Part shown: positions 10,551 to 58,901 of the stretch, piece after piece | Position numbering within the stretch: position 1 is the stretch's first letter | Layout: every line of letters starts with the position of its first letter | Assembly: GCA_963841435.1 (NCBI GenBank) | Contig: CAWJCS010000003.1 | Location: 800,001 to 864,000, forward strand | DNA: 64,000 nucleotides | Direction: 5' to 3' | Origin: an uncultured delta proteobacterium | Lineage (GTDB): Bacteria; Myxococcota_A; Polyangia; Polyangiales; Polyangiaceae | The notes under the pieces: model-generated | The model's database searches: none | Seen by the model: only the letters and a program-made list of their open reading frames with translations | What the model was told of the DNA's origin: nothing | Made by a program: the position numbers and the translations under genes

Positions 10551-10570
10551 ATCTCCTTACGGTCATCGCC

Positions 10571-11476
10571 ATGTTGCTTTCACGAACCGCCGAGTCCATG
10601 TACTGGCTGGGTCGCTACCTCGAACGGGCGCACTCCCTCGCACAAGCTCTGAAGGCCTACGAGGCGCTGACGCTCGACATGCCGCGCCCGAGCTCGAGTG
10701 TGGACTATGCGCCCATGGGCGCGCTCTCGGGCTTCGACCCAAAAATGCACACCGGTCGGCTCGGCCTCGCGTCGCTCCTACTCGACGAAACGAACCCGTC
10801 AACGGTGCTCGGCGCACTGCAGGCCGCGCGCGAAAACCTGCGACAGAGTCGTCCCTCCGTGCCGATCGAGGCGTGGGAAACGCTGAACGGTCTCTACCTC
10901 GACCTCGGTTCCCTGCCGGATCGAGAGCCCGGCACGCTGTCCTTGGCACTTGCCGACGCCGTGGCCGGTTCGCGCGAGCTCCAGGGAACGATCAGCGTCG
11001 AGATGCTGCGCGATTCGACGCTCGGCTTCCTGTCGATGGGCATTCATCTCGAGCGAGCGGACATGGTGCTGCGCACGCTCGTCGTGCTTTCCAACGCGCT
11101 CGGACTCTGGGGAAATCAGCACGCCTTCGACGATGTCCGGCTTTCGGGCCTGCTCCGGGCCGTGGCGGCGCACACCATGTACCGGCGGCGGCATCGCATG
11201 AAGACGAACCTCGAGACCGTGCTCGACTTCGTTCTGCTCGACCGCGAGTTCCCCCGCAGCATCGACTACTGCCTCTCCCGCCTCGATGCCCGGCTTCGCG
11301 TGCTGCCCGATCCGAACGGCCCGCTGAAATGCGTCGCCGAGGCGCGACCGGACCCGTCGGCGGTGCGCGCGGCCACCACCTCGGCGGGGCTCACGGCCTT
11401 CGCCGAGGGGCAGCTCGAGCGCCTGGCACGCGTCAACGGCGCGCTCGGCGCGAAGTACTTCGCGAGCGCTGCCTGA
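10571..11476 (+). CDS. Alpha-E domain protein (DUF403)
   Basis: MLLSRTAESMYWLGRYLERA, ARENLR, LERADM, FPRSI; usual partner of CP-ATP-grasp. Confidence 0.92.
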   Translation: MLLSRTAESMYWLGRYLERAHSLAQALKAYEALTLDMPRPSSSVDYAPMGALSGFDPKMHTGRLGLASLLLDETNPSTVLGALQAARENLRQSRPSVPIEAWETLNGLYLDLGSLPDREPGTLSLALADAVAGSRELQGTISVEMLRDSTLGFLSMGIHLERADMVLRTLVVLSNALGLWGNQHAFDDVRLSGLLRAVAAHTMYRRRHRMKTNLETVLDFVLLDREFPRSIDYCLSRLDARLRVLPDPNGPLKCVAEARPDPSAVRAATTSAGLTAFAEGQLERLARVNGALGAKYFASAA

Positions 11477-12829: not shown

Positions 12830-14632
12830 GTGAAAGCGTCAGTACCCACTGAAGGCCGCCGAGAGCCACTGCGAGAGAGCCTCGCAGCGCTCACGACCGC
12901 CGTGACGCGCGCCACCTCGGCGTACCGGGCCCGCATCGACGCCGCACTGCCCCGCCATCGCGAGAGCGCAGAGAACCTCGCGCACTACCTCGGTCTCCGA
13001 CAGCAAGACGTGCGCGAGCTGCAGCTCGAGCTCGCAGCGATCGGCCTGTCGTCGCTCGGCCGCTCGGAGGGGCACGTGCTCGACATCCTCGAGCGCCTCG
13101 GCGCATGGCTCGCGAACGATGCCGATCGCGCCGCGTCGGACCCCGAGGACCGCCTCGACTGGGCCCGTGCCCGGGCCATCTTGCACGAGAACACGCACGC
13201 CCTGTTCGGCGAGCGCCCCACCGAGCGGCACGTCTACATCATGGTGACGGCGCCCGACGCCGCGGAGGTCACGCCCGACTGGGCCGATCGGATCCTCGAC
13301 GCTGGCGCCGACATCCTGCGCATCAACGCAGCTCACGGCGATGCCGACGGCTGGCGTGCGACGGCCGCTTGCTTCACGGCGCGCGCCACGCTGCGCGGAC
13401 GGCCGGGTCGCGTCATCGTCGATCTGCCGGGCCCGAAGTTTCGCGCCGAGCTCAGGCAGCGCGAGCGCGCCGTGCTCCACTTCGCGCGCAAAAAGGACCG
13501 GCTCGGCAAGACGACCGAGCCGACGCTCGTCACGCTCGTCGCCGAGCACGGCGGCGAGCGCGAGGTGCCGATCCCGCCCAGCTGGCTGCCCGCGCTAGAG
13601 CGAGGCGACGTGCTCGAGCTCACCGACGCCGCGGGCCGCAAGCGGCAGCTCGTCGTCGAGCGCAGCGAGCCTACGCGCGTCATCGCGTCGTCGGAGCAGT
13701 CGCTGTACGTCGTCGCATCACTGCCGCTCACCTGGCGGCGCGGCGACGCCACGCTCGGCGAGGGCAGCGTGGGCTCGCTCCCGTTCGTGCCCACGACGCT
13801 CCGCCTGAGCCCCGGCGACGCGTTCGTGCTGAGCGCGCGAGACGATACGGAAGCGGGCGACCTCCCCGAGCTCACCATGCCGGAGCCCGGGCTGCTCGCG
13901 CAGGTGCGCCCCGGTGAGCGGGTGATCCTCGACGACGGAAAAATCGCCGCCGTCGTCGAAGAACGCCGCGGCGAGGGGCTGGTCTGCCGCGTGCACAAGG
14001 CGCTCCGCGCGCCCACGCGGCTCCGCTCCGGCAAGGGCATCGCCTTTCCCGACAGCACGCTCGAGGTCCCCGGACTCGGCGAGCGCGACGCCCTCGCGCT
14101 CCGGGTGGCGCTCGAGGTGGCGCACGGCGTCGGCGTGTCGTTCGTGAGCTCGGCCGCCGACGTCGCCGACGTGGGCGAGCGCATCCGCGCCGCCGAGAAG
14201 CCCGGCTTCGGCATGATCCTCAAGCTCGAAACGCGCGGCGCCATGGATCACCTGCCCGACATCCTCTTCGAGGCGATGAAGTACCACCCCGTCGGCCTCA
14301 TGATCGCGCGCGGCGACCTCGCCGTGGAGCTCACCTTCGAGCGCCTCGCCGAGATGCAAGAGGAGCTTCTCTGGTTCGGCGAGGCCTGCCACTTGCCCGT
14401 GGTCTGGGCGACCGAAGTGCTCGACACCGTGGCGCACTCGGGCGTCCCCACGCGCGCCGAGGTGACGGACGCCGCGATGTCGATGCGCGCCGAGTGCGTC
14501 ATGCTCAACAAGGGCCCCTTCATCGCCGACGCCACGCGCATGCTCGCCGACATCATCCACAAGATGGAAAAGCATCAGTACAAGAAGCGCTCGCTCTTCC
14601 GGAAGCTCGGGCTCGCAAAGGAACGGTCGTGA
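12830..14632 (+). CDS. pyk: Pyruvate kinase, long atypical form
   Basis: LRINAAHG, VDLPGPKFR, LDDGKI, LKLET, MIARGDLAVE, WATEVL, PTRAEVTDAA, ECVMLNKG; N-terminal extension and enlarged B domain. Confidence 0.9.
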   Translation: MKASVPTEGRREPLRESLAALTTAVTRATSAYRARIDAALPRHRESAENLAHYLGLRQQDVRELQLELAAIGLSSLGRSEGHVLDILERLGAWLANDADRAASDPEDRLDWARARAILHENTHALFGERPTERHVYIMVTAPDAAEVTPDWADRILDAGADILRINAAHGDADGWRATAACFTARATLRGRPGRVIVDLPGPKFRAELRQRERAVLHFARKKDRLGKTTEPTLVTLVAEHGGEREVPIPPSWLPALERGDVLELTDAAGRKRQLVVERSEPTRVIASSEQSLYVVASLPLTWRRGDATLGEGSVGSLPFVPTTLRLSPGDAFVLSARDDTEAGDLPELTMPEPGLLAQVRPGERVILDDGKIAAVVEERRGEGLVCRVHKALRAPTRLRSGKGIAFPDSTLEVPGLGERDALALRVALEVAHGVGVSFVSSAADVADVGERIRAAEKPGFGMILKLETRGAMDHLPDILFEAMKYHPVGLMIARGDLAVELTFERLAEMQEELLWFGEACHLPVVWATEVLDTVAHSGVPTRAEVTDAAMSMRAECVMLNKGPFIADATRMLADIIHKMEKHQYKKRSLFRKLGLAKERS

Positions 14633-14849
14633 GCGCGCTCCTTCCGGCGGGAGGGGTTGGGATGGGTGGAGGCGACCCCATTCCCTCCCCGAAATGAAGT
14701 CGCGGCGCGCCGTTCCACTCAGGGACCGGAAACGTTCGGCACCCGGCGCCGGCGGGCGTTTCCACGGAGCACGAGCCTCGCTCGCCCTCGCCGGCCACAC
14801 GGGCTTCAGCGCCGTTTCGAGCCCCGTTCCGTCATCGTTTTCGCCGTCC

Positions 14850-14865
14850 CGGCCACGGTTCTGCT
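14850..14865 (+). promoter_or_regulatory. Possible sigma54 promoter of the carF-like gene
   Basis: CGGCCACGGTTCTGCT = GG-N10-GC, 12 nt before ATG 14878. Confidence 0.4.
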
Positions 14866-14877
14866 ACGTCAGGGGCC

Positions 14878-15540
14878 ATGGCCCTGGGCTACAGCAAGGC
14901 GTTCACCTACACGATGGTCGCGGCCATGGCGTGGTCCGCGTGGGCCCTCGTGCGGTCGCCCCCGTCGCTCGTCGTCGGCCTGTTCCTGTTCGCTTTCTGC
15001 ATGGTCATCACCGACCTGATCAGCGGCCTTTTGCACGTCGTCCTCGACAACCCGCGCTCGCTCGACCTCGCACCCATCCGCGGCCTCGCGCAGGGCTTCC
15101 AGCGCCACCATCAGAACCCCGCCAACATCTACGAGATGCCGCTCTACCAGCACCTGTACGTGATGCACATGCCGCTCACGCTACTCTTCTTCGTGGTGCT
15201 GCCCTTCCACGAGCCGGGAATGTACGTCGTGTTCCTGAGTATGATCGTCGGGCTCCACGTGATGCAGATGGCCCATCTGTGGGCCCACCTCCCGCTTTCA
15301 CGGGTGCCGAGGGTCGTTCGCTGGCTACAGAACGGGCGGGTGCTGCTCAGCAAGCGGCAGCACGACCTTCACCACACGCCCCCCTACGACAAGGACTTTT
15401 GCATCATGACGGGCGCCTGCAATCGCCCGCTCAATGCTGCAGTGCGCCTCCTCGGGCCGACCACGCACTGGTGGCTTTTCATCTTCCTGCTTTCGACGCT
15501 CTCGCCGCTCGCCGTCGCCTTCGTGACGGCGCGCCTCTAG
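14878..15540 (+). CDS. CarF/TMEM189(PEDS1)/FAD4-family membrane lipid desaturase
   Basis: His boxes DLISGLLH..LD, FQRHH.NP, QMAHLWAH, QHDLHH and FCIMTGACN in a 4-5 TM protein. Confidence 0.85.
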   Translation: MALGYSKAFTYTMVAAMAWSAWALVRSPPSLVVGLFLFAFCMVITDLISGLLHVVLDNPRSLDLAPIRGLAQGFQRHHQNPANIYEMPLYQHLYVMHMPLTLLFFVVLPFHEPGMYVVFLSMIVGLHVMQMAHLWAHLPLSRVPRVVRWLQNGRVLLSKRQHDLHHTPPYDKDFCIMTGACNRPLNAAVRLLGPTTHWWLFIFLLSTLSPLAVAFVTARL

Positions 15541-15604
15541 TGCGCTCGGCTCTGCCCCGCGGAACCCTGGGCGGGGATCGTTCGGGGACGGCGGGCAAAA
15601 AGCC

Positions 15605-16900
15605 TCAGCCGGACCTGGTGGCCGCTTGCCGGAGCTTGCGGCGCACCGTCGAGCGATCGAGCTCGAGCACGCGCGCGGCCACGGCGTAGCTTTGCGCCGA
15701 GCGCTCGAAGACGCGCGTCACGTACCAGCCCTCGACGTCCGCGAGCGACGTGCGCCCGTCGCGCACGCGCGCCGGCACGTCGTCGGCCGTGGGCTCGCGC
15801 ACCGGGACCGTGGGCTCGGGCAGCAGGCCAGGGTCGAGGCCGAGCAACACGTTGCGCAAGCAATTCTGCAGCTCGCGCACGTTACCCGGCCAGGCATGCG
15901 CACGCGCCTCGCGGCTTTCGAGGAAGCTTCGCACTTGGCGCCACTCGGGAGCGCGCGGCTCGAGGTAGCGCTCGGCGAAACGCAAACCGATGGGCAGAAC
16001 GTCCTCGATGCGCTCGCGCAGCGCGGGCAACCGGATGACGTTGCCGGCAAGCCGCTCGTAGAGGTCCTCGCGGAATGCGCCACTCGCGACCATGGCGCGC
16101 AGGTCCTTGTGCGTGGCGGCGATGTAGCGCACGTCGGCGTCGTAGGTCGTGTCGGAGCCGAGCGGCGTCACGCGGTCCGTCTCCATGACGCGCAGGAGCT
16201 TGCTCTGCGCCGTCGGCGGCAAATCGCCCACTTCGTCCAGGAAAAGGCAGCCGGACGCCACGGAACGGATGTGCCCGACTCGCGCGGTGCTCGCCCCCGT
16301 GAAAGCGCCCCGCGCGTGGCCGAAGAGCTCGCTCTCGACGAGCGTCTCGGGAAAGGCCGCGATGTTGAGCGCGGCGAACGGCGCCTCGCCGCCGTCGGGC
16401 CCGCCGAGCGTGCCGAGCGCGATGGCGTGGGCGATCGCGTCCTTGCCCGCGCCCGTCTCGCCCGTGACGAGCACGTCGTGCTCGCGGATGACGCGTTCGA
16501 GCCGCCCCGTGACGAGCAGCGAAGCGCCAAAGCTGGCGCTCCAGGCCGCCGCGCGCGCCGCGCGTAGCGAGCTCGACACCCCAGCCAGAGCGCCGAGCGC
16601 CCGCTGCGCCCGCGCCGCCGCCGCGACGAGGCGCACGAGCTCGCGCCGCGGGCGTCCGAGCCGCGCGAGCAGGCGCTCCGGGACACGGGCTGGCGAGAGC
16701 GCGGTCGCCGGAGACTCACCCCGGACGACGGTGAGCGCGAGAGCGCGCGCGAGCGTCGAGCGCAGCAAGCTCGCGTCGTCGGCGCGGGCCCCCACCACCC
16801 CCTGGGACGCGAGCAGGCGCTCGGCGCTCTGCTGCCAGGCCCCGGGATCACCGACGAACGGATTCTCGAGCACGCGCGCGGCGGCGTCGGCCCTGGCCAT
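15605..16900 (-). CDS. sigma54-dependent enhancer-binding protein lacking a receiver domain
   Basis: GETGAGKD, ESELFGHARGAFTGA, LFLDEVGDL, FREDLYERL, WPGNVRELQN, C-terminal Fis-type HTH. Confidence 0.93.
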   Translation of the reverse strand: MARADAAARVLENPFVGDPGAWQQSAERLLASQGVVGARADDASLLRSTLARALALTVVRGESPATALSPARVPERLLARLGRPRRELVRLVAAAARAQRALGALAGVSSSLRAARAAAWSASFGASLLVTGRLERVIREHDVLVTGETGAGKDAIAHAIALGTLGGPDGGEAPFAALNIAAFPETLVESELFGHARGAFTGASTARVGHIRSVASGCLFLDEVGDLPPTAQSKLLRVMETDRVTPLGSDTTYDADVRYIAATHKDLRAMVASGAFREDLYERLAGNVIRLPALRERIEDVLPIGLRFAERYLEPRAPEWRQVRSFLESREARAHAWPGNVRELQNCLRNVLLGLDPGLLPEPTVPVREPTADDVPARVRDGRTSLADVEGWYVTRVFERSAQSYAVAARVLELDRSTVRRKLRQAATRSG

Positions 16901-16934
16901 GCTGTATTATACACCATCTGGTGTAATTTACAGC
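16901..16934. promoter_or_regulatory. Double-palindrome operator / upstream activator sequence (2 x TGTA-N3-TACA), overlapping a minus-strand TATAAT
   Basis: GCTGTATTATACACCATCTGGTGTAATTTACAGC; AT-rich, dyad symmetric, abuts the activator start codon. Confidence 0.75.
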
Positions 16935-16997
16935 ACTAAGATACTCGAGAAAGGCCGAGCAGACAGCGTTCGCGCGATTCTCGGCCCGATCCGTGTG

Positions 16998-17013
16998 GGG
17001 CACGGAAGTTGAA
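16998..17013 (+). promoter_or_regulatory. sigma54-like promoter of the yqiJ/yqiK-like operon
   Basis: GGGCACGGAAGTTGAA: canonical GGCACG at -24, TTGA instead of TTGC at -12. Confidence 0.5.
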
Positions 17014-17025
17014 AGGGGGAGTCGC

Positions 17026-17742
17026 ATGGCCACGCTCCCCCTCGCCTACTGGCTGTTTCTGACCGCCCTCGGGCTGGGCTGCACGCTGGGCCTGGGCGCG
17101 CTGTTCGAAGGAGGCGGCACCGCTACGGACGCCGACTTGGACGGAGATGCCGATGTCGAGCTCGACGCGGACGCTCCGGACGCCGAGCTCGACGCGGATG
17201 CGGACGCGGACGGCGACGCGCACGGCACGGATGCGGACGGCTCGGTGCCCGTCGAGACGTTCTGGTCGGCGCTCGGCATCGGGCGGGTGCCAGTCGGCCT
17301 TTTGCTCTCGCTCGATCTCATGCTGTTCGGCGGGATCGGTCTCGTCGTGTCGGAGCTCGGCGGCGTGCTCTTGCCGGTGCCGGTCGCTTCGTGGCTCGCA
17401 TTCGGCGTCGCCGCCGTCGCGGGGCCGCTCTTCGGTGGGCGGCTCGCGCGCGCCATCGCGCGCCGGCTGCCCGGTGTGGAGTCGCACGGTGTCTCGCGCC
17501 TCGGGCTCGTCGGTCGCCTCGGGCACGCCGAGCTCGACATCGACGCGCGCTTCGGCCGGGCGAGGGTCATCGACGCGGGAGGCGCCGTGCACCTCGTGCG
17601 TTGCACCTCGAGCACCGGCGTCATCCCGCGCGGCCGCGAGCTCGTGATCACGGATTGCGACCCGAAGACGGGGATTTTCGAGGTCGTCTCGGCCGATCTC
17701 GAGCTCGGTCCGCCGCCGCAAAGGGCCAGCCGGGTCTCGTAG
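17026..17742 (+). CDS. YqiJ/NfeD-like membrane protein with acidic loop and C-terminal OB fold
   Basis: TM, DADLD-type acidic repeats, LGIGRVPV, TMs, LVGRLG..GRARVIDAGG.VHLV; immediately upstream of flotillin; SD GGGGAG. Confidence 0.8.
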   Translation: MATLPLAYWLFLTALGLGCTLGLGALFEGGGTATDADLDGDADVELDADAPDAELDADADADGDAHGTDADGSVPVETFWSALGIGRVPVGLLLSLDLMLFGGIGLVVSELGGVLLPVPVASWLAFGVAAVAGPLFGGRLARAIARRLPGVESHGVSRLGLVGRLGHAELDIDARFGRARVIDAGGAVHLVRCTSSTGVIPRGRELVITDCDPKTGIFEVVSADLELGPPPQRASRVS

Positions 17743-17810
17743 CGGCCCGGCCCTGCGCGTCCGCGTTGGACGCCCCAAAGCACTCTCGAACGAAAGAAGG
17801 AGAAGCAGTC

Positions 17811-19676
17811 ATGAAACTCACGGTCATGGTTCTATTCGGCATCCTGCTCACTCTGAGCCCCCAGGTCGCGCGCATGCTGGGCCACGATCCGGGCCTCGGC
17901 CCGAGTCTCGGCGCCACCATCGCGGGCGTCGTGCTGCTCTGCCTCTCGAGCGTGCTCGCGCTCTTCGCGCGGCTGTACCGGCGCACGCGGTCTTCCCAGG
18001 CCCTCGTGCGCACGGGCGCCGGCGGTGCACGCGTCGTGCGCGACGGCGGTGCACTCGTGATCCCCATCTTGCACGAGCTCGTGCCGGTGAGCTTGCAAAC
18101 CATCAAGCTCGAGGTCGAGCGCCGCGACGAGGACGCCCTCATCACGCTCGACAAACTCCGCGCCGACATCTCGGCGGAGTTCTTCGTGCGCGTGCAACCG
18201 GACGACGAAAGCATCCTGCAGGCCTCGCGCTCGCTCGGCGAGCGCATGGGCAACGCCGCCGCCGTCAAGGAGCTCATCGAGGACAAGCTCGTGAGCGCCC
18301 TTCGCACGGCCGCGGCGGGAAAGTCGCTCGAGCAGCTCAATTCCGAGCGCGACGCCTTCCTCGCCGAGGTCATCAAACTCGTCGCCGACGACCTTCAGTC
18401 GAACGGCCTCGTGCTCGAGACGGCCACGATCTCGCGTCTCGACCAGACGGACGAAAAGTTCCTGAAGGCCGAGAACATCTTCGACGCGCAGGGTCGCCGC
18501 AAGATCGCGGAGATCACGCAGCTGAATCTCACGGAGCGCAATCGCCTCGTGCGAGAAGGCGAGGAGGCGAGGAAGCGCCAGGACGTGAACGCGAAGAAGC
18601 TCGTGCTCGATCACGAGCTCTTCGAGCAGCGGGCGCACGCCGAGCAGCGGGCGCACGTCGCCGAGGTCGAGGCCGAGGCGCGGCGCGTGAGCGAGGAGCG
18701 GCGCATCGTCGCCGAGCGGCAGATCGAGCTGGCGAACCTCGAGAAGGCCGGCTCCGTGGAGCTCGCGCTCCGCGCGCAGCAGAAGAACGTCGAGGTCGCG
18801 GAGCGCCAGAAGCTCGAGGCCATCGCCGAGGCGGAGCAGCGCCACGCGCTCGCCGAGGCGGAGCTCGAGCTACGCCGCGCCGAGCTCGAGCGCGCTCACC
18901 AGCAGGTGGAGACGGTACGCGTTACGGAAGCCGCCGAACGCGACAAGCGGAAGCTGGTGATCGACGCGGAGGCGGCTGCCGAGCAAAAGTACGTCGCCGA
19001 CCAGCGCCGTGCGGATGCCGACGCCTACACCCGCGAGAGGCAAGCCCAAGCGCAGCATGCGGCCGCGAGCGCGGAAGCGTCGGCTTTGCGCACCAAGGCC
19101 GAGGCCGAAGCAGAAGCCGAGGCACGCCGGGCCGAGGGCGAGCGAGCACGGGCCATGGTGCCCGTCGAGGTCGAGCGGGCGAAGGTTGCCGTCGAGCGCG
19201 AGCGCGTCGACAACGTCGTCAAGGCGGAGCTCGAAGCGCGCGAGAGACACGGCAAGGTGGCGCAGGAGTTCGAGATCGCCAAGCTCCGTGTCGAGGCCGA
19301 GCGCGAGGTTCGTATCGCCATCGCGCACGCCTCGGCGACGCTCTTCACGAAGGTCCAGGCAAACCTCTACGGCACGCCCGAGGACGTTGCGAAGATCGGC
19401 CAGGCGTTCTTGCGCGGTCAGAGCGCGGCGCTCACGGCGAACGGCTTCTTCGAAGCCGCGTCGAGCGCAACGGACGGCGCGCTCGACAAGCTCGGACAGA
19501 GTGCCGACGGCCTGCTCACGGCGCTCGCCACGCGGCTTGCCGCACCCGGCGACCAACCGTCGTCGTCCGAGACCAAGACGGACGCCACGAGCGAGGCGCC
19601 CGCCGACGCCGAGGGCGCGCCGCTGCCGCCCAGCGCGGCAAACGGAGCGTCGGCAGAGGCGCCCGAGCACGGCTGA
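17811..19676 (+). CDS. Flotillin/SPFH-domain protein (YqiK-like)
   Basis: ALVRTGAGG..V..GG..V.P.LH, LITLDKLRADISAEFFVRV, long Glu/Ala/Arg coiled coil; ATG 17811 after AAGGAG. Confidence 0.92.
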   Translation: MKLTVMVLFGILLTLSPQVARMLGHDPGLGPSLGATIAGVVLLCLSSVLALFARLYRRTRSSQALVRTGAGGARVVRDGGALVIPILHELVPVSLQTIKLEVERRDEDALITLDKLRADISAEFFVRVQPDDESILQASRSLGERMGNAAAVKELIEDKLVSALRTAAAGKSLEQLNSERDAFLAEVIKLVADDLQSNGLVLETATISRLDQTDEKFLKAENIFDAQGRRKIAEITQLNLTERNRLVREGEEARKRQDVNAKKLVLDHELFEQRAHAEQRAHVAEVEAEARRVSEERRIVAERQIELANLEKAGSVELALRAQQKNVEVAERQKLEAIAEAEQRHALAEAELELRRAELERAHQQVETVRVTEAAERDKRKLVIDAEAAAEQKYVADQRRADADAYTRERQAQAQHAAASAEASALRTKAEAEAEAEARRAEGERARAMVPVEVERAKVAVERERVDNVVKAELEARERHGKVAQEFEIAKLRVEAEREVRIAIAHASATLFTKVQANLYGTPEDVAKIGQAFLRGQSAALTANGFFEAASSATDGALDKLGQSADGLLTALATRLAAPGDQPSSSETKTDATSEAPADAEGAPLPPSAANGASAEAPEHG

Positions 19677-19701
19677 CCGGGCGAGAGTCAGCGTTCGCAT
19701 G

Positions 19702-19737
19702 GCCGGGAAAGCGGGACATCGTGCCCGCTTTCCCGGC
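19702..19737. terminator. Perfect 14-bp stem-loop between convergent genes
   Basis: GCCGGGAAAGCGGG-ACATCGTG-CCCGCTTTCCCGGC; no strong U-tract. Confidence 0.55.
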
Positions 19738-19790
19738 GTCGATCGCCCTCCTTTCCCGGAAGCGCGGGACAACGGCAACGAAGGCGCTCC

Positions 19791-20270
19791 TCAGCCCGGC
19801 GAGGGCCAAGTCACCGGGGATCGAAGCTCGGCAGCGACCGCCATGAGCGTGTTCATGCCCCAGTGCTCGACGTACCGTCCGCCCCGCACGCGCACGATGT
19901 CGATCACTTCGATACGCACGGGGCGCCCGGTCGGGGGAAGGTCGAAGAGCGGTCCGGCGTGCGTGCCCACGAGCGATTTTCGCGTCGTCACGAGGTCGCC
20001 CTCGGCGATCTGCTCGTGGATCTCGACCCGAAGGTCCGGGAACGCCGGGCGCAGCACGCCGCTCAGCATCGACCACATGCCCTCGGGTCCCTTCGGAACA
20101 CCGGGAGGGGCCGTGTGATTGACGAAGTCGGGCGCCATGAGCTCGCGAAAGGCGGTCTCGTCCCCGCGCTCGATGACGGCGCGATTGAACCTTAACACCA
20201 CGGCCCTGTTCGACTCGAGGTCCGGCGCGTCCACGGCCTCGACGTTACCACCGGCGCTCCGTCGAATCAT
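19791..20270 (-). CDS. SnoaL-like ester cyclase (start uncertain)
   Basis: NRAVVLRF..APDFVNH..AFPDL.VEIHEQIAEGDLV..GTH.G..PPTGRPV..DIVRV..EHWG. Confidence 0.88.
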   Translation of the reverse strand: MIRRSAGGNVEAVDAPDLESNRAVVLRFNRAVIERGDETAFRELMAPDFVNHTAPPGVPKGPEGMWSMLSGVLRPAFPDLRVEIHEQIAEGDLVTTRKSLVGTHAGPLFDLPPTGRPVRIEVIDIVRVRGGRYVEHWGMNTLMAVAAELRSPVTWPSPG

Positions 20271-20657
20271 CGGGTCACACGCGTCACGACGCACGATGGT
20301 CACGCGACTGTCTTCGACGCCGCAACTCCCGTCGTCGAACAAGCGTGCCTCGCACCATCCCGTCGGCGCGCGAAGGGCCCCGAGCGCTCGGGCGCTCGAG
20401 AACGCACCGTCTTTCGCAGCGCTACGGAGGACGAGCCCGGCCTGGTCGATTTTTTTTCGAGACGAAGCACACCGCCGAATCTTCAGTTCGCGAACCCGAC
20501 CGAGGTCAGCGAGATCAACACTGACCTTCACGAAATCCCAAGCTTCGTGTCCGAGGACGGCTGCCGGCTCTATTTCGATCGCGTGGAGATAGCCGAGTTC
20601 GGGTGGGGTCTCGGCCCCGAAAACGCGTTCGTCGCGGAGCGCACGCCCGGCGGGTGA
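20240..20657 (+). pseudogene. Start-less C-terminal relic of a PD40/TolB-like beta-propeller gene
   Basis: Frame open 20196-20657 with no start codon until an internal GTG near the 3' end; reads FANPTEVSEINTDLHEIPSFVSEDGCRLYFDR..FVAERTPGG*. Confidence 0.5.
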
Positions 20658-20847
20658 GCGGGCGCGTGGGCGGGGCGCGCCTTGTGTGCCCGGGCCGGCC
20701 CGCGAGCTGATCCGGCGCAGGCGCGCGCTGACACCCCCGTCATTCCGCGTATTTCCCCGGCTTGCTTGCCAACCTCCCGGGATCGATGGCTAGACTGACG
20801 CCCGTGTCACCCACCCCCCTCGAGGGCGCGCTGAGAGGACCCGAGCG

Positions 20848-24489
<3,642 letters not shown>

Positions 24490-24532
24490 ATTCGATGCTT
24501 TCCTCCGCTCGTCCTTGCCCCGGTCGTCGCTC

Positions 24533-24751
24533 GATCGAGATCCGTTCTTCCAAGACCGCAAGGTCGTGTTGGGCGGGGCATTCGCGACGTCTCGTCTCGT
24601 TTCAGTCGTTCTTTGCGCCGTCGCGCGACCGTGTCGTTCGTCAACGAGAGTGCGCCCGTTCCGCCGGTTCTCGTGTTTGGGAAGCTCCCTCTCACGCGGA
24701 TCGAGATCTGTTCTTCCAAGACCGCAAGGTCGTGTTGGGCGGGGCATTCGC
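24533..24751 (+). repeat. Two 53-bp direct repeats (24533-24585 and 24699-24751, one mismatch) with internal GCAA tetraloop hairpin
   Basis: GATCGAGATC[C/T]GTTCTTCCAAGACCGCAAGGTCGTGTTGGGCGGGGCATTCGC twice, period 166 bp, intergenic. Confidence 0.95.
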
Positions 24752-24766
24752 CCCGCCGTTCTTTCC
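24738..24766 (+). terminator. Terminator-like hairpin overlapping repeat copy 2
   Basis: GGCGGGGC-ATTC-GCCCCGCC followed by GTTCTTTCC, about 30 nt before ATG 24798. Confidence 0.5.
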
Positions 24767-24797
24767 CAAGTTTCTCTGAAGTCTAAGGAGACCTCCG

Positions 24798-26708
24798 ATG
24801 ACCCAGCAGATGATTCCCAACGGCCCCACGAAGAAAAGCCTTCCCATCGTCGGTAAGACGCAGTCGCTCGATGTCGATGCGGAGCTTGCCGCGTTCGAAG
24901 CCGAAGAACGTGCGCGCCTCGGGCTCGCCGTCGAGGAGCAGTGGCTCGAGCAGATGGCAAACCTCTCCTTCACGAAGAAGGAAAAGGGGAAGATCACGCT
25001 GCTCATCGGCGGCCTGACCATGGCGCACGACTACCTGATCTCCGGCGCGTTCCGGAGTCTCGGCTACAACGTCGTGCCCCTCGACGCGCCGGACTACGAC
25101 GCGCTTCGCGTCGGCAAGGAGTTCGGAAACCGTGGGCAGTGCAACCCCACCTACTTCACCGTGGGAAACCTCGTGAAGTTCTTGCTTCACGTGCAGCAAA
25201 AGGAAGGGCTCACCGCCAAGCAGGTGATCGACCAGTACGTGTTCTTGACGGCCGGCGCCTGCGGCCCCTGCCGCTTCGGCATGTACGTCACCGAGTACCG
25301 AAAGGCGCTGCGTGACGCCGGCTTCGACGGCTTCCGCGTGATGCTGTTCCAGCAGCAGGGCGGCCTGAGCCAGGCGACGGGCGAGGAGAGCGGCCTCGAG
25401 CTCAACCCGAAGTTTTTCATCGGACTGCTCAAGGGTCTGGTCGCCGGCGATGTCATCAACGGCATCGCGTACCGCCTGCGCCCCTACGAGGTCGTCCCCG
25501 GTGCCACGGACAAGGCCATCGCCGAGGCGAAGAAGATTTGTTACGACGCGCTCTTCGAGCGGCGCAGCATCTTGCGTGCCCTCTACCAGTCGCGAAAAAT
25601 CTTCGAAAAGGTCGAAGTCGATCGCACGATCCCCAAGCCCAAGGTTGCCATCATCGGCGAGTTCTGGGCCATGACGACCGAGGGCGACGGCAACTACCAG
25701 CTCCAGCGCTTCCTCGAGCAGGAAGGCGCCGAGTGCGACATCCAGTTCGTCACGGCGTGGCTGCTCTACAACGTGTGGGAGGTGCGCTTCGACACGAAGA
25801 GCCGTGCGCTGCTCCGCCAGCACGACACGGGCAAGAACGGCCTCAACGGCATGGGCGAGTTCGGCGTCCTCAGCCGTCAGCTCGCGCTCTGGGCCGCCGA
25901 CAAGGCGATCCGCGTCGGGTTCCAGACCTTCGCCAACGTCGCAGGGTTTTACAACTACCACCTGGCCGACATGGACGAGGTGGCCGACGTGGCTGCGCCC
26001 TTCTACAACAACGATCTCCGCGGCGGCGAAGGCCACATGGAGGTCGGCAAGCTCATTTTGAACGTGGTCAAGAGCAAGGCCACGATGACACTCAGCGTGA
26101 AGCCGTTCGGTTGCATGCCGAGCTCGAGCGTGTCGGACGGCGTGCAGTCGCTCATCACCGAGCGCTACCCGGGCACCATCTACTGCGCGGTCGAGACCAG
26201 CGGCGACGGCGCCGTGAACTTCCAGAGCCGCGTGCAGATGTACCTCTTCAAGGCGCGCCAGGCGGCGACCGAAGACTTCGAGAGCGCTCTCGAGAAGACG
26301 GGCCTCACGGTCGAGAAGCTCCGCGCGTTCCTCGAGGCGAACCCGAAGTACGCGGCGGGCCTACACAAGTCCCCGCACTTCGCCGCGAGCACGCCGGCCG
26401 ACCTCGTGTACGAGGTCGCCGAGATCGTCAACACGACGCGCGCGCAGCGGCTCGCCAAGAAGGCCGAGAAGACGGCCCGCGCTGCCTACGCTTTCGCGAC
26501 GCGCGCCGCCAAGGACGCGCCGTCGAACGCCAAGTCCGCCGCCTCGCTCATCGCGGCGGGCGCCGTCGAGCTCGCCGAGATCGCCAAGGAAAAGGGCCCC
26601 GGCTTCGCCGAAAGCGCTGCCCAGAAGGCGCGCGCGAAGCTCGCCGAGGTGCTTCCTTTCGTGAAGAAGGAAGAGCCGCGCGAGCCGGTCGTCGCCGCGG
26701 CAGAGTAG
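24798..26708 (+). CDS. 2-hydroxyacyl-CoA dehydratase/reductase-like Fe-S protein (PlsR-like) with Ala/Lys-rich tail
   Basis: QCNPTYFTVG, GACGPCRFGMY, PKVAIIGEF, GEG, KPFGCMP; SD AAGGAG. Confidence 0.85.
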   Translation: MTQQMIPNGPTKKSLPIVGKTQSLDVDAELAAFEAEERARLGLAVEEQWLEQMANLSFTKKEKGKITLLIGGLTMAHDYLISGAFRSLGYNVVPLDAPDYDALRVGKEFGNRGQCNPTYFTVGNLVKFLLHVQQKEGLTAKQVIDQYVFLTAGACGPCRFGMYVTEYRKALRDAGFDGFRVMLFQQQGGLSQATGEESGLELNPKFFIGLLKGLVAGDVINGIAYRLRPYEVVPGATDKAIAEAKKICYDALFERRSILRALYQSRKIFEKVEVDRTIPKPKVAIIGEFWAMTTEGDGNYQLQRFLEQEGAECDIQFVTAWLLYNVWEVRFDTKSRALLRQHDTGKNGLNGMGEFGVLSRQLALWAADKAIRVGFQTFANVAGFYNYHLADMDEVADVAAPFYNNDLRGGEGHMEVGKLILNVVKSKATMTLSVKPFGCMPSSSVSDGVQSLITERYPGTIYCAVETSGDGAVNFQSRVQMYLFKARQAATEDFESALEKTGLTVEKLRAFLEANPKYAAGLHKSPHFAASTPADLVYEVAEIVNTTRAQRLAKKAEKTARAAYAFATRAAKDAPSNAKSAASLIAAGAVELAEIAKEKGPGFAESAAQKARAKLAEVLPFVKKEEPREPVVAAAE

Positions 26709-26775
26709 CTCGAAGCCCGGCGGATCCCGCAGGCGCCGCGCGCTGATCGTCTCGGCGATCACGCGCGGCGTGCGC

Positions 26776-27684
26776 TCACGCCTGGGCGCTGTGCACGGAA
26801 AGCTGCTGCTCGCGCTCGCTCGAGCGGGCGCGGAGCTGGCGGGAGGCGCGCACCGCGTAGACGATGCCGACGATGACGAAGACGGGCGTCAAGACGAGCA
26901 GCACGCCGTTCGGCGCGTCGAGCAGCTTCAACGCGGAGAGCAGGAGGACGACGATCAGCGCGGGTCGGATCACATGGTCGGGAGCCCGCGACGAGAAATG
27001 CGCCCCGAGCAGCACGGCGGGGATGCTACCGACGAGGATCGACCCCGTGAGGCCGAGCGCGAAGTTGCCGAACAGGAGGTGCCCGATGGCGGCGCTCGTG
27101 ACGAGCGGTACCGCCTGAACGAGGTCGGTACCGACGAGCTCCGAGAGCCTGAGACGCGGGTACAGCATCAGGAGCAGGATGATCATCAGCGAGCCGGAGC
27201 CGACCGACGTGAGCCCGACGATCAGCCCTCCCGTGATGCCAATGAGCAGCGTGGGCAGCGGCTTGACCACGAACGGCAGCTGGCTCTCGCCCGGCAGCTT
27301 GCGCGCCGCGAGCAGTGGACGCACCACGAGACCGATCGAGACGATGAGGAGCACGGCACCGAGCGCGGTCTTCACGTGCGCCTGCAGGTTCGGTCCCACG
27401 CCGAGCTGCCTGAGCAGAAGGACCCCGAGAAACGCGGATGGAACCGATCCCAGGACCAGCCATTTGACGAGCCCCATGTTGACGGTCCCGCGACGCCAGT
27501 GAACGCCGCCACCGATGGGGCGCATGATCATCGATGCGACGATGTCACTGGAAACGGCGGTGAGAGGCTCGACGCCGAACAGGAGCACCAAAACCGGCGT
27601 CATCAGCGCACCGCCGCCCATGCCCGTCAGGCCGACGACGAAGCCAACGCAGGCCCCTGCGATGATCACCAGCGGATCGAGCAT
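26776..27684 (-). CDS. Sulfite exporter TauE/SafE family protein
   Basis: VGFVVGLTGMGGGALMTP, VGLTSVGSGSL, LVGTDLVQAVPL. Confidence 0.92.
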   Translation of the reverse strand: MLDPLVIIAGACVGFVVGLTGMGGGALMTPVLVLLFGVEPLTAVSSDIVASMIMRPIGGGVHWRRGTVNMGLVKWLVLGSVPSAFLGVLLLRQLGVGPNLQAHVKTALGAVLLIVSIGLVVRPLLAARKLPGESQLPFVVKPLPTLLIGITGGLIVGLTSVGSGSLMIILLLMLYPRLRLSELVGTDLVQAVPLVTSAAIGHLLFGNFALGLTGSILVGSIPAVLLGAHFSSRAPDHVIRPALIVVLLLSALKLLDAPNGVLLVLTPVFVIVGIVYAVRASRQLRARSSEREQQLSVHSAQA

Positions 27685-27823
27685 GCCAGAATGGTACCTC
27701 GACCCCGGCGACTTCCTGCTATCTCGATGGGATTAGCCGGGAAAAAATTCATCATCGCTGCTCGAATTGACCTGCAGGCCGAACGATGGGTTTGCGTCAA
27801 TCCAACCATGCTTCGACTTTCGA

Positions 27824-28744
27824 CTATTGCTGTCCGGCGGGAGCCGGAAGTGCGGGGTCCACGGCGGCGCCAAGGGCAAGGGCAAGGGCGCGATCGCGGC
27901 GACTTGAGCGCAGCGCGTGAGCGACTCCGATAGCCGCCGTGACGGGGACAAAAACGGCCATGACCGCGTTGCCGACGCCGAGCAGCTTGAGGGCAGAAGC
28001 GGCGAGCACGACGATCAGCGCGGGACGGATGACGTAGTCGGGCGCGCGCGACGAGAAGCGCGCGCCGAGGAACACGCCGGGGACGCTCCCGATGAGAATG
28101 GAGGCGGTGAGCGCGAGCTGGAAGTCGCCGAACAGCAGGTGACCGATCGCAGCGCTCGTCACGAGCGGCACGGCCTGCACGAGATCGGTGCCCACGAGCT
28201 CCGACAGCTTGAGCCTGGGATAGAGCATCAGGAGTAGGATGATCATCAGGGAGCCAGATCCGACGGACGTGAGGCCGACGACGAGGCCGCCTGCCACGCC
28301 AACGAGCAGCGTCGCGAGCGGCCTCACGACGAACGGCGTCTGACTCTCGCGGGCGATCTTTCGGGAGGCGAGCAGCGGGCGCAAAACCAGCCCCACCGCG
28401 ACGACGAGCAACGCCACGCCGAGCGCTGTCTTGACGTGGAGCTGCAAGTCCGCGCCGACGCCGAGCTCCTTCAAGATGAGCACACCGAGGAACGCGGACG
28501 GGACCGAGCCGAGCGCGAGCCACTTGACGATGCCGAGATTGACCGTGCCGCGCCGCCAATGAACCCCGCCGCCGATCGGTTTCATCACCATCGACGCGAC
28601 GATGTCGCTCGAGACGGCGGCGAGCGGCGGGATCCCGAACAGCAGCACGAGGACCGGCGTCATGAGCGCGCCGCCGCCCATACCCGTTAGGCCGACGACG
28701 AAGCCGACGAACAAACCGGCGAGCGTGACGAGTGGATCGAGCAT
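27824..28744 (-). CDS. Sulfite exporter TauE/SafE family protein (tandem paralog)
   Basis: Same motifs, collinear with and closely similar to the downstream copy; both start MLDPLV. Confidence 0.92.
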   Translation of the reverse strand: MLDPLVTLAGLFVGFVVGLTGMGGGALMTPVLVLLFGIPPLAAVSSDIVASMVMKPIGGGVHWRRGTVNLGIVKWLALGSVPSAFLGVLILKELGVGADLQLHVKTALGVALLVVAVGLVLRPLLASRKIARESQTPFVVRPLATLLVGVAGGLVVGLTSVGSGSLMIILLLMLYPRLKLSELVGTDLVQAVPLVTSAAIGHLLFGDFQLALTASILIGSVPGVFLGARFSSRAPDYVIRPALIVVLAASALKLLGVGNAVMAVFVPVTAAIGVAHALRSSRRDRALALALGAAVDPALPAPAGQQ

Positions 28745-28842
28745 GCACATCAGCCTAGCGACCGATCATCTAATTGTCGATAGGTTTTATAGACTAAACT
28801 GGAAAACGCAAATCTTTCAATGATTTCATCAAATTGCAGGCA

Positions 28843-30213
28843 TCAGGCCGCGGGCGCGGGCGGGGCGATGCTGGTGCGCGGGATCTCGGCCTCTTCCTTT
28901 CGTGTCTCACCGGCGCGGTCGAGCGCGACCTTGAAGAGGATCGGACCGACGACCTCGTTGATGGCGACACCGGCGATGACGAGATCACCGAGGCCACTGC
29001 CGAGCCCGGGGAACGCGCGCTGGATCACGACGGCGAGCCCCAGCGAGAACCCGGCCTGCGAGATCAGCGATGACCAACCCCAGCGCCGGAGTGACGGCTC
29101 GTCGTTCGCGAGGCGGCTTGCAATGCGCGCCGCGGCCCACGTCGAGACGGCACGGGCCGCGCACAGCGAGAGCGCGAACGGCCAGAGCTGCTCGAGCAGC
29201 GGCAGATTGAGGTGTGCGCCCGCCGTCGCAAAGAAGACGACGAACACCACGCCCCCCGTTTGCTCGATGGCGTGCACGAGCTTGCCACCCTGCGCCGTGA
29301 GGTTTTGGACGACGAATCCCGCAACGAGGAACGCCAGCGTGGGGTTGACGTGAACGTAGCGCAAGAAATCCGTGAGCCCGAAGCCGATGGCGAGCAAGAC
29401 GAGCAGGAGCTGCCGGCCCACGAGGCGCAGGTACGCCGCCAGACCCAGACCGAGCGTCGTGCCGAACGCCACGCTGCCGAGTAGCTCGTGGCCCAGCTCC
29501 TGCACGTCTTTCAGGGAAAAACCGCCACCGCCGCCGATCAACGGCCGCGCGAACATCATCACGATAGCGAGCATCACGACGACGACAACGTCCGAGGCCA
29601 TGATGAACGCCAGCGAGAAGGTCGCGACGGGCCCCTTGGCCCGGGTTTGCGCGAGGATGCCCATGCACGCCGACGGGCTGCGACTGATCGAGAGCACGCC
29701 CCAGAGCAAAGAGACGCCGATGATCGGGGCGAGCCCGAGGTTTGCCATGAAGGGCAAGAAGGAAGCGACCCCGCCGAAGACGACGGCCATCGTCAAGAGC
29801 ACGAACAGGGACTGAACGAGCATGGCGTAGCGCAGGCTCTTCGCGACCTGGCGCAGGGTGCTGACGCGTAGCTCGGCACCGCCCGCCAGCGCGATCAGCG
29901 ACAGCGCCAGGGTGTTCACGGGTGAGAGCCGCTCCACCGTGTGGACATCCACGAGCTTTAGAACGTAAGGGCCGCCGACGATCCCCGCGAGCAAGTAGCC
30001 CGAGAGGTGCGGCAGACCCACCGTTTCGAGGAGCTCGCTCAGCAGCGTGCCGACGAGCAGCAGGTACCCGACGGCAGCGACCGTCCCGAGGTGGCCCTCG
30101 AGCTCGGGTGCGAGACGCGTCGCGGCGAACAGCACGCCGAATACGACGCCCAGCGAGACCAGCTGGACGATGCGGGTCACGAAGCCCTTCGGAGCGCTCG
30201 CCGCCGTGCTCAC
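28843..30213 (-). CDS. Cation:proton antiporter (CPA family)
   Basis: LPHLSGYLLAGIVGGP, GGAEL, FVVFFATAGAHL, SQAG.SLGLA, INEVVGP; about 12 TM. Confidence 0.88.
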   Translation of the reverse strand: MSTAASAPKGFVTRIVQLVSLGVVFGVLFAATRLAPELEGHLGTVAAVGYLLLVGTLLSELLETVGLPHLSGYLLAGIVGGPYVLKLVDVHTVERLSPVNTLALSLIALAGGAELRVSTLRQVAKSLRYAMLVQSLFVLLTMAVVFGGVASFLPFMANLGLAPIIGVSLLWGVLSISRSPSACMGILAQTRAKGPVATFSLAFIMASDVVVVVMLAIVMMFARPLIGGGGGFSLKDVQELGHELLGSVAFGTTLGLGLAAYLRLVGRQLLLVLLAIGFGLTDFLRYVHVNPTLAFLVAGFVVQNLTAQGGKLVHAIEQTGGVVFVVFFATAGAHLNLPLLEQLWPFALSLCAARAVSTWAAARIASRLANDEPSLRRWGWSSLISQAGFSLGLAVVIQRAFPGLGSGLGDLVIAGVAINEVVGPILFKVALDRAGETRKEEAEIPRTSIAPPAPAA

Positions 30214-44800: not shown

Positions 44801-44836
44801 TATGGTATTCTGACCGTCGAAAGGGGAAGAGATTGA
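41831..44836 (+). CDS. CheB/CheR fusion with coiled coil and PAS domains
   Basis: [20 protein letters not shown] (CheB); [24 protein letters not shown] (CheR); NEELQST heptads; PAS. Confidence 0.95.
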
Positions 44837-58828: not shown

Positions 58829-58901
58829 GAAAGGTTCCTTCCCGTGCAAAGCTTAACGCCTCACGCTTGACCGCTCTCGAGCAGGGTGCCACCGTCGGTT
58901 C

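Follow-up and report, generated by a model that had tools for sequence, protein, structure and literature searches.

The stretch of DNA analysed here, called the window throughout, comprises 64,000 nucleotides of a contig from an uncultured delta proteobacterium of the Polyangiaceae, with a G+C content of about 68%. Between 14.8 and 26.7 kb it carries genes for a membrane di-iron desaturase, a sigma-54 enhancer-binding protein, a flotillin-type protein with a membrane protein beside it, a small SnoaL-like protein and a pair of proteins related to ATP-dependent iron-sulfur reductases (Table 1). Spurious frames crowd the raw lists of open reading frames (ORFs); the true frames were chosen by third-position GC and then searched with Pfam and NCBIfam models. 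A preliminary description of this DNA had read the stretch as oxygen-dependent (CarF-like) and oxygen-independent (PlsA/PlsR-like) ether-lipid genes clustered around a flotillin module. Its gene inventory was borne out by third-position GC and Pfam, every gene that it named being found at or near the place it had assigned; the SnoaL gene between the flotillin gene and the reductase pair was absent from it.

The best explanation of our data is that these 12 kb hold three functionally unrelated units, which are neighbours in this genome only: a lone PF10520 desaturase gene, a sigma-54 activator gene with a yqiJ-like/flotillin gene pair, and a two-gene unit at 20848-26708 that encodes the predicted reductase. 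The last of these is conserved far beyond this genome and is treated first.

Table 1. Genes and other features between 14.8 and 26.7 kb of the window
Feature	Length	Coordinates	Strand	Evidence
PF10520 (Lipid_desat) membrane di-iron desaturase, P0003	220 aa	14878-15540	+	Pfam 96.1 bits, cut-off 26.4
Sigma-54 enhancer-binding protein, P0487	431 aa	15605-16900	-	Sigma54_activat 169 bits, and AAA_lid_14
YqiJ_N/NfeD-like membrane protein	238 aa	17026-17742	+	YqiJ_N 31.1 bits, cut-off 23
Flotillin-type SPFH/Band 7 protein	621 aa	17811-19676	+	Band_7 69.4 bits
SnoaL-like small protein		19791-20531	-	SnoaL 118 bits; in the longest ORF the domain spans residues 111-235; the true start is uncertain
Act1-Act2-(4-Cys linker)-Red1 protein, P0002	1213 aa	20848-24489	+	BcrAD_BadFG twice, and DUF2229
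Intergenic spacer between P0002 and P0001 genes	308 nt	24490-24797	+	Two 53-nt direct repeats, GC hairpin
Red2 subunit, P0001	636 aa	24798-26708	+	HAD/BCR/DCCP fold at about residues 50-545; Ala/Lys-rich helical tail

The reductase pair

The first protein of the pair, P0002, is built around what we call the BBD core, that is, two BcrAD_BadFG (PF01869) ATPase domains (Act1 and Act2) followed by DUF2229 (PF09989; Red1). PF01869 is matched in two stretches with 230.7 bits and PF09989 at residues 765-997 with 179.6 bits, and the NCBIfam matches, which are of the archerase type, comprise TIGR00241 (193.9 bits) as well as BzdQ, BcrA and BcrD. The cysteines of P0002 are placed in sets: C135/C174 and C477/C516 in the ATPase domains, C646/C649/C653/C676 in the linker (CxxCxxxC...C) and C818/C868/C1063 in DUF2229. 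Read by eye, its C-terminal tail is charged and helix-like.

The second protein, P0001 or Red2, has no Pfam match even at E ≤ 10, no NCBIfam match and no match in the Protein Data Bank (PDB) by phmmer. Fragments of PF06050 (HGD-D) were found neither in P0002 nor, even at E ≤ 10, in P0001, and BLASTP of one protein against the other matched the DUF2229 region locally and weakly (E 0.029), which we take as a hint only. An AlphaFold2 model of P0001, built on an alignment of 52 sequences, has a predicted local distance difference test (pLDDT) score of 84.9 and a predicted template modelling (pTM) score of 0.81. All of its ten best Foldseek matches are DCCP, HadB/C or BzdN/O chains (probability about 1.0, E 1.9e-5 to 3.1e-4), with 7yzm_A, 3o3m_B/D, 6eno and 8s02 ranked first. 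Taken together, the matches include the double-cubane cluster protein DCCP (7yzm, 7yyl, 6eno), the 2-hydroxyisocaproyl-CoA dehydratase HadB/C (3o3m, 3o3n) and the benzoyl-CoA and 3-methylbenzoyl-CoA reductases BzdNO and MbdON (8s02, 9gai). Their E-values run from 2e-5 to 1e-3, and their TM-scores are modest (0.26-0.35 by query and 0.34-0.53 by target). Thus, the "reductase-like partner" of the preliminary description is reductase-like by fold and not by sequence.

In the alignment of 52 sequences C115, C158 and C439 of P0001 are invariant and C155 is nearly so. It has been reported that DCCP has a seven-cysteine motif, six residues of which are ligands of an [8Fe-9S] cluster, and that HadBC and benzoyl-CoA reductase (BCR) have three-cysteine [4Fe-4S] sites (PMC7317905). 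Identity with DCCP was rejected for P0001, which has three invariant cysteines and one nearly invariant cysteine and not the seven-cysteine motif. The protein fits the three-cysteine [4Fe-4S] type of the subunits of 2-hydroxyacyl-CoA dehydratase (HAD) and BCR, and would be expected to bind such a cluster. When the pair is set beside HadBC with HadI, BzdNOPQ/MbdONPQ and DCCP, the points of likeness are the catalytic-subunit fold of P0001, the archerase-type ATPases and a three-cysteine site in each reductase domain. Unlike HadBC with HadI and BzdNOPQ/MbdONPQ, however, the window pair has no PF06050 domain, and its activator is duplicated and fused to Red1 instead of forming a separate homodimer. 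The pair thus does not belong to the soluble acyl-CoA dehydratases with the classical set of three genes.

A word-indexed search with P0001 gave at least 8000 matches. The best 120 of them are 68-100% identical to the query, and those that carry a name are Polyangiaceae proteins from metagenome-assembled genomes (MAGs), labelled "2-hydroxyglutaryl-CoA dehydratase" or "predicted nucleotide-binding protein". In an exhaustive search of representatives clustered at 50% identity, 1973 relatives came in at E ≤ 0.001, 310 of them at E ≤ 1e-30. Scanning a collection of species-representative genomes with Red2 yielded 80 related loci, and in 72 of these Red2 is immediately preceded by a BBD gene of the same orientation. 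Upstream DNA is lacking in six of the other eight loci, and the remaining two (L008 and L009) have 10 kb of upstream DNA without a BBD gene. Moreover, BBD and Red2 are fused in some relatives, either in the order of the window (as in P0223 with 1579 aa and P0384 with 1646 aa) or in reverse, with Red2 preceding BBD (P0285, P0398 and P0400). An Atlas search with P0223 gave generic protein names only, none of them with a taxon. Because of these fusions and of the adjacency, association of Red1 with Red2 is likely, and the pair is a genuine unit, a conserved set of two genes that would encode one enzyme.

The neighbours of the pair were compared across the 80 loci by all-against-all BLAST of ORFs filtered by third-position GC. 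Of 52 loci, 26 have a TetR-family gene upstream of the pair, an assignment checked with Pfam on one representative; this gene is directly divergent in 16, or in 18 if overlapping ORF calls are counted. In the window, the SnoaL gene holds the divergent position taken by TetR in many relatives. No recurrent neighbour other than TetR was found in the 80 loci, several apparent "families" being shadow ORFs on the antisense strand of the pair itself.

The spacer between the two genes is the longest that was measured, since in 69 related loci the median is 21 nt and the maximum 260. The copies of its direct repeat (24533-24585 and 24699-24751) lie 166 nt apart with 98% identity, and the second copy gives rise to a perfect GC hairpin of 8 bp with a T-rich tail (24738-24757), right before the Red2 ribosome-binding site. 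This arrangement could represent an attenuator or a small duplicated element. Terminator-like sites were not enriched (6 seen against 8.7 in shuffled sequence), a scan for sigma-70 promoters found no site, and no Rfam match was obtained within 14000-29000.

Relation to PlsA/PlsR and Ger and possible function of the pair

It has been reported that PlsA/PlsR are composed of Act1, Act2, Red1 and Red2, that they are split into two genes in C. perfringens, and that in E. faecalis (4248 bp), L. cremoris (4311 bp) and B. longum subsp. suis PlsA is encoded by one gene, with lengths of 4248-4920 bp (PMC12838417). Ger has been described as a "modified PlsA" in which a conserved BBD core is followed by short D and HGD-D fragments (PMC13159169). 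When expressed in E. coli it leads to 1-O-alkylglycerols, under anaerobic conditions only (PMC13159169, PMC8788747); the BBD core is described as conserved in all alkyl-ether producers, and both the activity and the occurrence of Ger as tied to anaerobes (PMC13159169). The window pair shows the same order, Act1-Act2-Red1 and then Red2, distributed over two genes as in CPE1194/1195 of C. perfringens (PMC12838417), and it has the same BBD core (two PF01869 domains and PF09989) as the Ger proteins of Thermotoga maritima and Desulfatibacillum alkenivorans. The TetR neighbour seen in many relatives of the pair also has a counterpart, a TetR gene having been described upstream of the pls gene of E. 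faecalis (PMC9702350).

The relatives separate into two clades: clade A, to which the window belongs, and clade B, composed of anaerobe-type fusions of about 1400 aa. In a quick IQ-TREE tree of 87 Red2 domains (LG+G4, root unknown), 29 clade-B domains are split from 58 domains including the window with support of 100 in the Shimodaira-Hasegawa-like approximate likelihood ratio test (SH-aLRT), on a branch at which the program warned of long branches meeting. P0002 is 44-64% identical to eight of eight clade-A fusions, 72% to its Sorangium homologue and 67% to three Bacillota proteins. Its identity to the clade-B fusions (about 1400-1530 aa) is 25-29% over roughly 1070-1170 residues, with E-values from 1e-82 to 1e-125 in ten of ten comparisons. 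A profile made from relatives of P0001 scored clade-A BBD fusions at 581-687 bits and clade B at 124-192 bits, over nearly the whole C-terminal domain.

Despite this distance, the cysteines are largely the same. C135, C174, C477, C516, C646, C649, C653, C676, C818 and C868 of P0002 are present in all 21 clade-A and all 28 clade-B sequences, and C1063 in 21/21 and 27/28, respectively; in Red2, C115, C158 and C439 occur in 58/58 clade-A and 29/29 clade-B domains. About 20 further Red2 residues and all the predicted cluster ligands are common to both clades. The pair therefore resembles the PlsA type, as represented by the fusions of about 1400 aa, in having cysteine pairs in both ATPase domains and three cysteines per reductase domain. 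It differs from this type in a fourth Red2 cysteine, C155, which lies in a C-G-P-C motif in 97% of clade A, is found in none of the 29 anaerobe-type Red2 domains of clade B and could complete the coordination of the predicted Red2 cluster. Another difference from PlsA lies in the long extra C-terminal tails of the window proteins, with 1213 and 636 aa against about 1415-1640 aa. As opposed to published Ger, PF06050 fragments are missing from P0001, from P0002 and, at E ≤ 0.05, from all ten clade-A fusions, whereas at the same threshold they were detected in 6 of 14 clade-B fusions.

A search for longer relatives of P0001 gave 229 matches at E ≤ 0.001 among 7998 scored candidates. The best 120 of these comprise 17 fusions of the GltD type, 18 BBD-Red2 proteins at 35-58% identity, 5 partial sequences and 80 BBD fusions at 22-29% identity, with lengths of about 1360-1560 aa. 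Among the matches listed, the names on these low-identity fusions are a Gracilibacteraceae (Clostridia) MAG, Treponema, Nitrospirae, Thermodesulfobacteriota, Brocadiia, Chloroflexota, Planctomycetes and a deltaproteobacterium. In the 17 GltD-type proteins (P0219 and P0368-P0383) Red2 is fused C-terminally to a GltD-like NAD(P)H/FAD module (Fer4_20, Pyr_redox_2 and a 4Fe-4S ferredoxin domain). A fusion of this type is also seen at L063:10001-13858, and the group is a single one within the Myxococcota part of the tree (SH-aLRT 100). This domain composition points to NAD(P)H as a candidate ultimate electron source for clade A.

Cultured aerobes or facultative organisms are represented in clade A by Sorangium cellulosum So0157-2 and So ce26, Polyangium jinanense, Polyangium sp. 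6x1, Brevibacillus borstelensis, Paenibacillus macerans and Bacillus chungangensis. The Bacillota homologues (L060, L061, L064, L074 and L077, from Brevibacillus, Paenibacillus, Bacillus and Anaerobacillus) share with those of Polyangiaceae 67% identity in BBD and 56-60% in Red2, and their Red2 sequences nest among those of Myxococcota in the Red2 tree, which suggests either inter-phylum transfer or very strong constraint. A full-text search of the literature returned nothing on clade A, its Red2 or its occurrence in Polyangia or Brevibacillus, and the matched passages of two files of the Sci Adv supplement name no Sorangium, Paenibacillus or Brevibacillus. Passages of a 2026 preprint on sponge symbionts report "ger homologs" that have BBD only, without the second reduction domain.

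Judging from sequence, we regard the pair as truly homologous to the enzymes of PlsA/Ger architecture, with a place in a sister clade. The "PlsA/PlsR-like" label of the preliminary description holds for the architecture and for the full-length homology to the anaerobe fusions; in the tree, the pair stands apart from the anaerobe clade. If Ger resembles clade B, P0002 probably passes the published criterion for a Ger homologue (E ≤ 1e-50, coverage ≥ 30%; PMC13159169).

Based on this architecture and on the ligands shared with characterised relatives, we tentatively propose that the pair is an ATP-dependent iron-sulfur reductase acting on a membrane glycerolipid ester, a reading that has a real chance of being right and could well be wrong. 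The cluster types, electron path, substrate and product that we infer are as follows. The archerase-type domains of P0002 would hold a bridging [4Fe-4S] cluster via C135/C174 and C477/C516, and ATP hydrolysis would push a low-potential electron, possibly via the four-cysteine linker, into a pseudo-heterodimer of Red1 and Red2. As in HadBC and BCR, Red1 (C818, C868 and C1063) and Red2 (C115, C158, C439 and the clade-specific C155) would each carry a [4Fe-4S] cluster. By homology with PlsA/PlsR and Ger, which alone among enzymes of this architecture have been characterised, the most likely substrate would be the sn-1 acyl ester of a membrane glycerolipid, which may be converted to a vinyl or alkyl ether. 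Because the pair belongs to a clade distinct from the PlsA/Ger-like anaerobe clade, a vinyl-ether product must be regarded as a guess.

Several observations weigh against a lipid substrate. The identity of Red2 to clade B is 22-29%, as opposed to 35-89% within clade A, and it is clade B that probably corresponds to the published PlsA/Ger type: its lengths match those reported for PlsA of E. faecalis and L. cremoris, its HGD-D fragments are as in Ger, and its taxon names overlap with reported PlsA/Ger hosts (a Clostridia family, Brocadiia, Thermodesulfobacteriota and a deltaproteobacterium), in a comparison of clades that includes no experimentally verified PlsA, PlsR or Ger sequence. Unlike the PlsA type, clade A has obligate aerobes among its hosts (Sorangium cellulosum and Polyangium) together with Bacillota such as Brevibacillus borstelensis, and the plasmalogens of myxobacteria are described as probably confined to Cystobacterineae (PMC9131029). 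Moreover, the pair has no recurrent neighbour concerned with lipid metabolism among the 80 loci, the sole lipid neighbour being a PLD/cardiolipin-synthase-like gene that Paenibacillus macerans (L077) has 1.7 kb downstream. Finally, with a spacer of 308 nt and a terminator-like hairpin, co-transcription of the two genes is not assured in the window.

Part of this evidence is shared by another explanation, according to which the pair would be an ATP-driven iron-sulfur reductase or dehydratase for a substrate other than a lipid, for instance a small molecule, a coenzyme A (CoA) or acyl carrier protein (ACP) thioester, or an aromatic or xenobiotic compound, its likeness to PlsA/Ger being architectural only. 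We consider this a serious competitor, although a somewhat doubtful one. A distinct clade found in aerobes, with low identity to the anaerobe proteins, a cysteine of its own in Red2 and no HGD-D fragments, would fit a different substrate, as would those relatives in which Red2 is joined to a GltD-like oxidoreductase module. The commonest neighbour of the pair is a TetR regulator, a type that often governs genes of catabolism or efflux; however, no catabolic pathway genes recur near the pair in the 80 loci. Likewise, the best structural matches include DCCP, the physiological substrate of which has been described as unknown (PMC7317905), but the characterised Act-Act-DUF2229-Red2 enzymes are all reported to act on glycerolipid esters (PMC13159169, PMC12838417, PMC9702350), and the cluster ligands and further Red2 residues held in common with clade B weigh against this explanation.

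A more specific form of the glycerolipid reading is that aerobic soil bacteria (Polyangia and Bacillota of the Brevibacillus/Paenibacillus type) reduce a membrane-lipid ester to an ether, with C155 completing the Red2 cluster and NAD(P)H supplying electrons via the GltD-like module. We regard it as unlikely.

The desaturase and the flotillin module

The desaturase gene stands alone and is convergent with the gene of the sigma-54 activator. The preliminary description had called its product, P0003, CarF-like, which is correct at the level of the Pfam family (PF10520). An alignment of P0003 with nine relatives (10 sequences, with no verified CarF or FAD4 sequence among them) shows that the eight universal histidines (H53, H77, H78, H133, H137, H162, H165 and H166), D57 and F74 are all invariant. 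D57 is placed at His+4 and F74 at HH-3, and the spacing matches the numbering of mouse PEDS1, the corresponding residues being H96, H121, H122, H187, H191, H215, H218, H219, D100 and F118. In the mouse enzyme, the eight histidines and Asp100 have been reported as essential and Phe118 as important (PMC8960569).

Where P0003 departs from CarF and PEDS1 is the ninth histidine. This residue (mouse H131, CarF H113) has been described as present in those enzymes of metazoans, myxobacteria and Leptospira that can complement a carF mutant, and as missing from the non-complementing homologues of plants, which usually have Arg there, and of alphaproteobacteria (PMC9131029, PMC8960569). The equivalent position of P0003 (HH+9) is Met87, and Met or Leu is found there in all seven clade members of the alignment, one of which has a 1-residue insertion in this segment; His92 and His97 of P0003 lie close by. 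The NCBIfam model for CarF (NF045946) gives P0003 48.6 bits, against a curated cut-off of 500, and the six clade members scanned 42.9-62.5 bits; more distant relatives that likewise have no ninth histidine (P0215-P0217) reach 150-204 bits. P0003 is also shorter than the model, with 220 aa against 269 positions.

The close family of P0003 is small, with 96 proteins at E ≤ 0.001 among 515 candidates, and the organism names on it are Sandaracinaceae and Myxococcota only; an Atlas search returned Lipid_desat clusters only. CarF homologues of myxobacteria have been described as confined to Cystobacterineae, and true CarF has been placed in Cystobacterineae and Leptospira only (PMC9131029). P0003, in contrast, belongs to a small clade centred on Polyangia. 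With regard to plant FAD4, P0003 is not assignable from a comparison that held no plant sequence, and its residue at the ninth position is Met and not the usual plant Arg. In our reading, P0003 has the look of a functional di-iron lipid desaturase and is not a CarF orthologue, and its substrate is probably not plasmanylethanolamine. Thus, what does not hold in the earlier label is the CarF/PEDS1 type itself, in view of Met87 and of the low NF045946 score. Upstream of the desaturase gene, at 12830-14632, lies a gene for a pyruvate-kinase-like protein of 600 aa, which scores 562 bits with NF011314, below the cut-off of 642, and whose Pfam pyruvate kinase match covers the barrel part only.

The sigma-54 activator P0487 has a GAFTGA loop and a Walker A motif in its translation, and its N-terminal part of about 130 residues has no Pfam match. 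Its gene is divergent from the yqiJ-like and flotillin genes. For the first of these the likely start is ATG 17026, which has a purine-rich stretch ahead of it, and not GTG 16993; for the second it is ATG 17811, directly downstream of a purine-rich ribosome-binding site. The flotillin-type protein is anchored by a hydrophobic N-terminus and ends in a long, charged tail rich in Ala and Glu, and its score with the NCBIfam FloT model (31.5 bits) is far under the cut-off of 700 bits. NfeD (PF01957) was not matched at E ≤ 0.001. The two genes are arranged like the YqiJ-YqiK type of NfeD-like/flotillin pair of E. coli, with the YqiJ_N membrane protein followed on the same strand, after 68 nt, by the Band_7/SPFH protein. 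They differ from this type by the divergent sigma-54 activator with its unassigned N-terminal domain.

According to the preliminary description the flotillin operon had its own sigma-54 activator, a claim that is based on adjacency. The best -24/-12-like site (16998-17012) has two mismatches, one of them in the -12 GC, and lies 14 nt from the ATG, and such matches occur in the window at the frequency of shuffled sequence (54 against 54 expected). The 125 nt that separate the divergent activator and yqiJ-like genes contain an AT-rich near-palindrome at 16902-16935, with arms ACACCA and TGGTGT and AT-rich flanks, which is conspicuous in a genome of 70% G+C. It may be bound by an activator or a repressor.

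Gene neighbourhood in related loci

The other genes of the stretch were looked for in the loci related to the pair. The desaturase was found in none of the 80 loci, either by tblastn at E ≤ 1e-5 or with a profile of its alignment at E ≤ 1 on six-frame ORFs, and the flotillin in none by phmmer and tblastn. The YqiJ-like gene, the SnoaL gene and the upstream pyruvate-kinase-like gene were likewise each absent from all 80, and for the sigma-54 activator there was one generic match, 35% identical. At the spacing of the window, the flotillin gene would fit in the DNA upstream of the BBD gene in 49 loci (at least 3.1 kb) and the desaturase gene in 43 (at least 6.0 kb). When the 38 closest Red2 sequences were placed in a tree, the window fell in a clade of ten (SH-aLRT 95), and the four members of this clade with at least 6 kb of upstream DNA (L002, L005, L006 and L011) have neither desaturase nor flotillin. 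Because the linkage recurs in none of the 80 loci, the clustering does not go beyond chance. The picture of ether-lipid genes grouped around a flotillin was thus not sustained, and neither was that of both plasmalogen routes in one island, given that the desaturase is not of the CarF type. The evidence favours instead the caveat with which the preliminary description had qualified them, that is, that the clustering might be chance and that either enzyme may act on another substrate.

Account must be taken of the fact that synteny was examined from the Red2 side. The genes downstream of the pair in the window are shared by three loci only (L003, L004 and L010), and the contigs of all three, the most comparable loci, end at the start of Red2 and show no upstream side; these breaks might reflect a repeat or a second BBD copy. 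Just 3' of the pair, on the other strand, the window has tandem full genes for TauE/SafE-type exporters (26776-27684 and 27824-28750). A third TauE match, at 58478-58849, is an ORF of 123 aa that covers only the C-terminal half of the model.

Elsewhere in the window, a circularly permuted ATP-grasp gene (CP_ATPgrasp_2, 528 bits) followed by a gene for an Alpha-E domain protein, a conserved pair, occupies 9099-11476. A CheB-CheR fusion with PAS domains (1001 aa) and a hybrid histidine kinase are encoded at 41831-46992, and 3' of them a response regulator with an EAL domain at 47194-48549. Large ORFs supported by third-position GC and without a Pfam match were found at 3302-6727 (1141 aa), 28843-30213 (456 aa) and 30210-31562 (450 aa), and an ORF of 608 aa at 31502-33328 has a weak NCBIfam similarity to MscS/MscK.

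Two explanations would still tie the genes of the 12-kb stretch together. In the first, a rearrangement in this lineage would have swapped the TetR neighbour, and the pair would be co-regulated with an envelope-stress-like sigma-54/flotillin module without conserved synteny, coupling membrane remodelling to microdomain scaffolding. The window indeed has the SnoaL gene and the flotillin module where half of the relatives compared have TetR, and the upstream side of the three most comparable loci is unseen. However, promoter or regulator sites common to the two were not found, the sigma-54-like site is a weak one, an oppositely oriented gene separates the flotillin genes from the pair and the case is drawn from one genome, so that we find such a link decidedly unlikely. 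In the second, a CarF-type desaturase and a PlsA/PlsR pair would supply vinyl-ether lipids around a flotillin microdomain module; although all components lie within 12 kb, the desaturase keeps its complete eight-His, Asp and Phe site and the pair is within the PlsA/Ger superfamily, this is very improbable given the missing linkage even in loci with enough upstream DNA (4/4 of the nearest relatives with such DNA among them), Met at the ninth-His position with clade scores below those of the non-CarF P0215-P0217, the different strands and separate transcription units with the SnoaL gene between them, and no ElbD/AGPS/FAR-type gene for a plasmanyl precursor among the 46 window proteins scanned with Pfam.

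The picture of a dual plasmalogen route around a flotillin therefore dissolves on testing, and of the three unrelated units it is the conserved pair that remains of interest, with a Red2 that has no family model and at least 8000 matches, 57-67% identity between Myxococcota and Bacillota, and presence in cultured aerobes. If clade A acts on something other than lipids, it would represent a new substrate class for ATP-driven iron-sulfur reductases. If clade A makes ether lipids, the published link of Ger/PlsA with anoxia would need revising, and surveys of "Ger homologues" that rely on the BBD core only would have merged two enzyme clades. Should aerobic soil bacteria indeed reduce membrane-lipid esters in this way, myxobacteria would have a second, ElbD-independent route to ether lipids, and the ether-bound bacterial lipids of oxic soils would have a candidate source in clade A. 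Since Sorangium, Polyangium and Brevibacillus are cultured, the question is directly testable in them, and the pair offers a testable lead.

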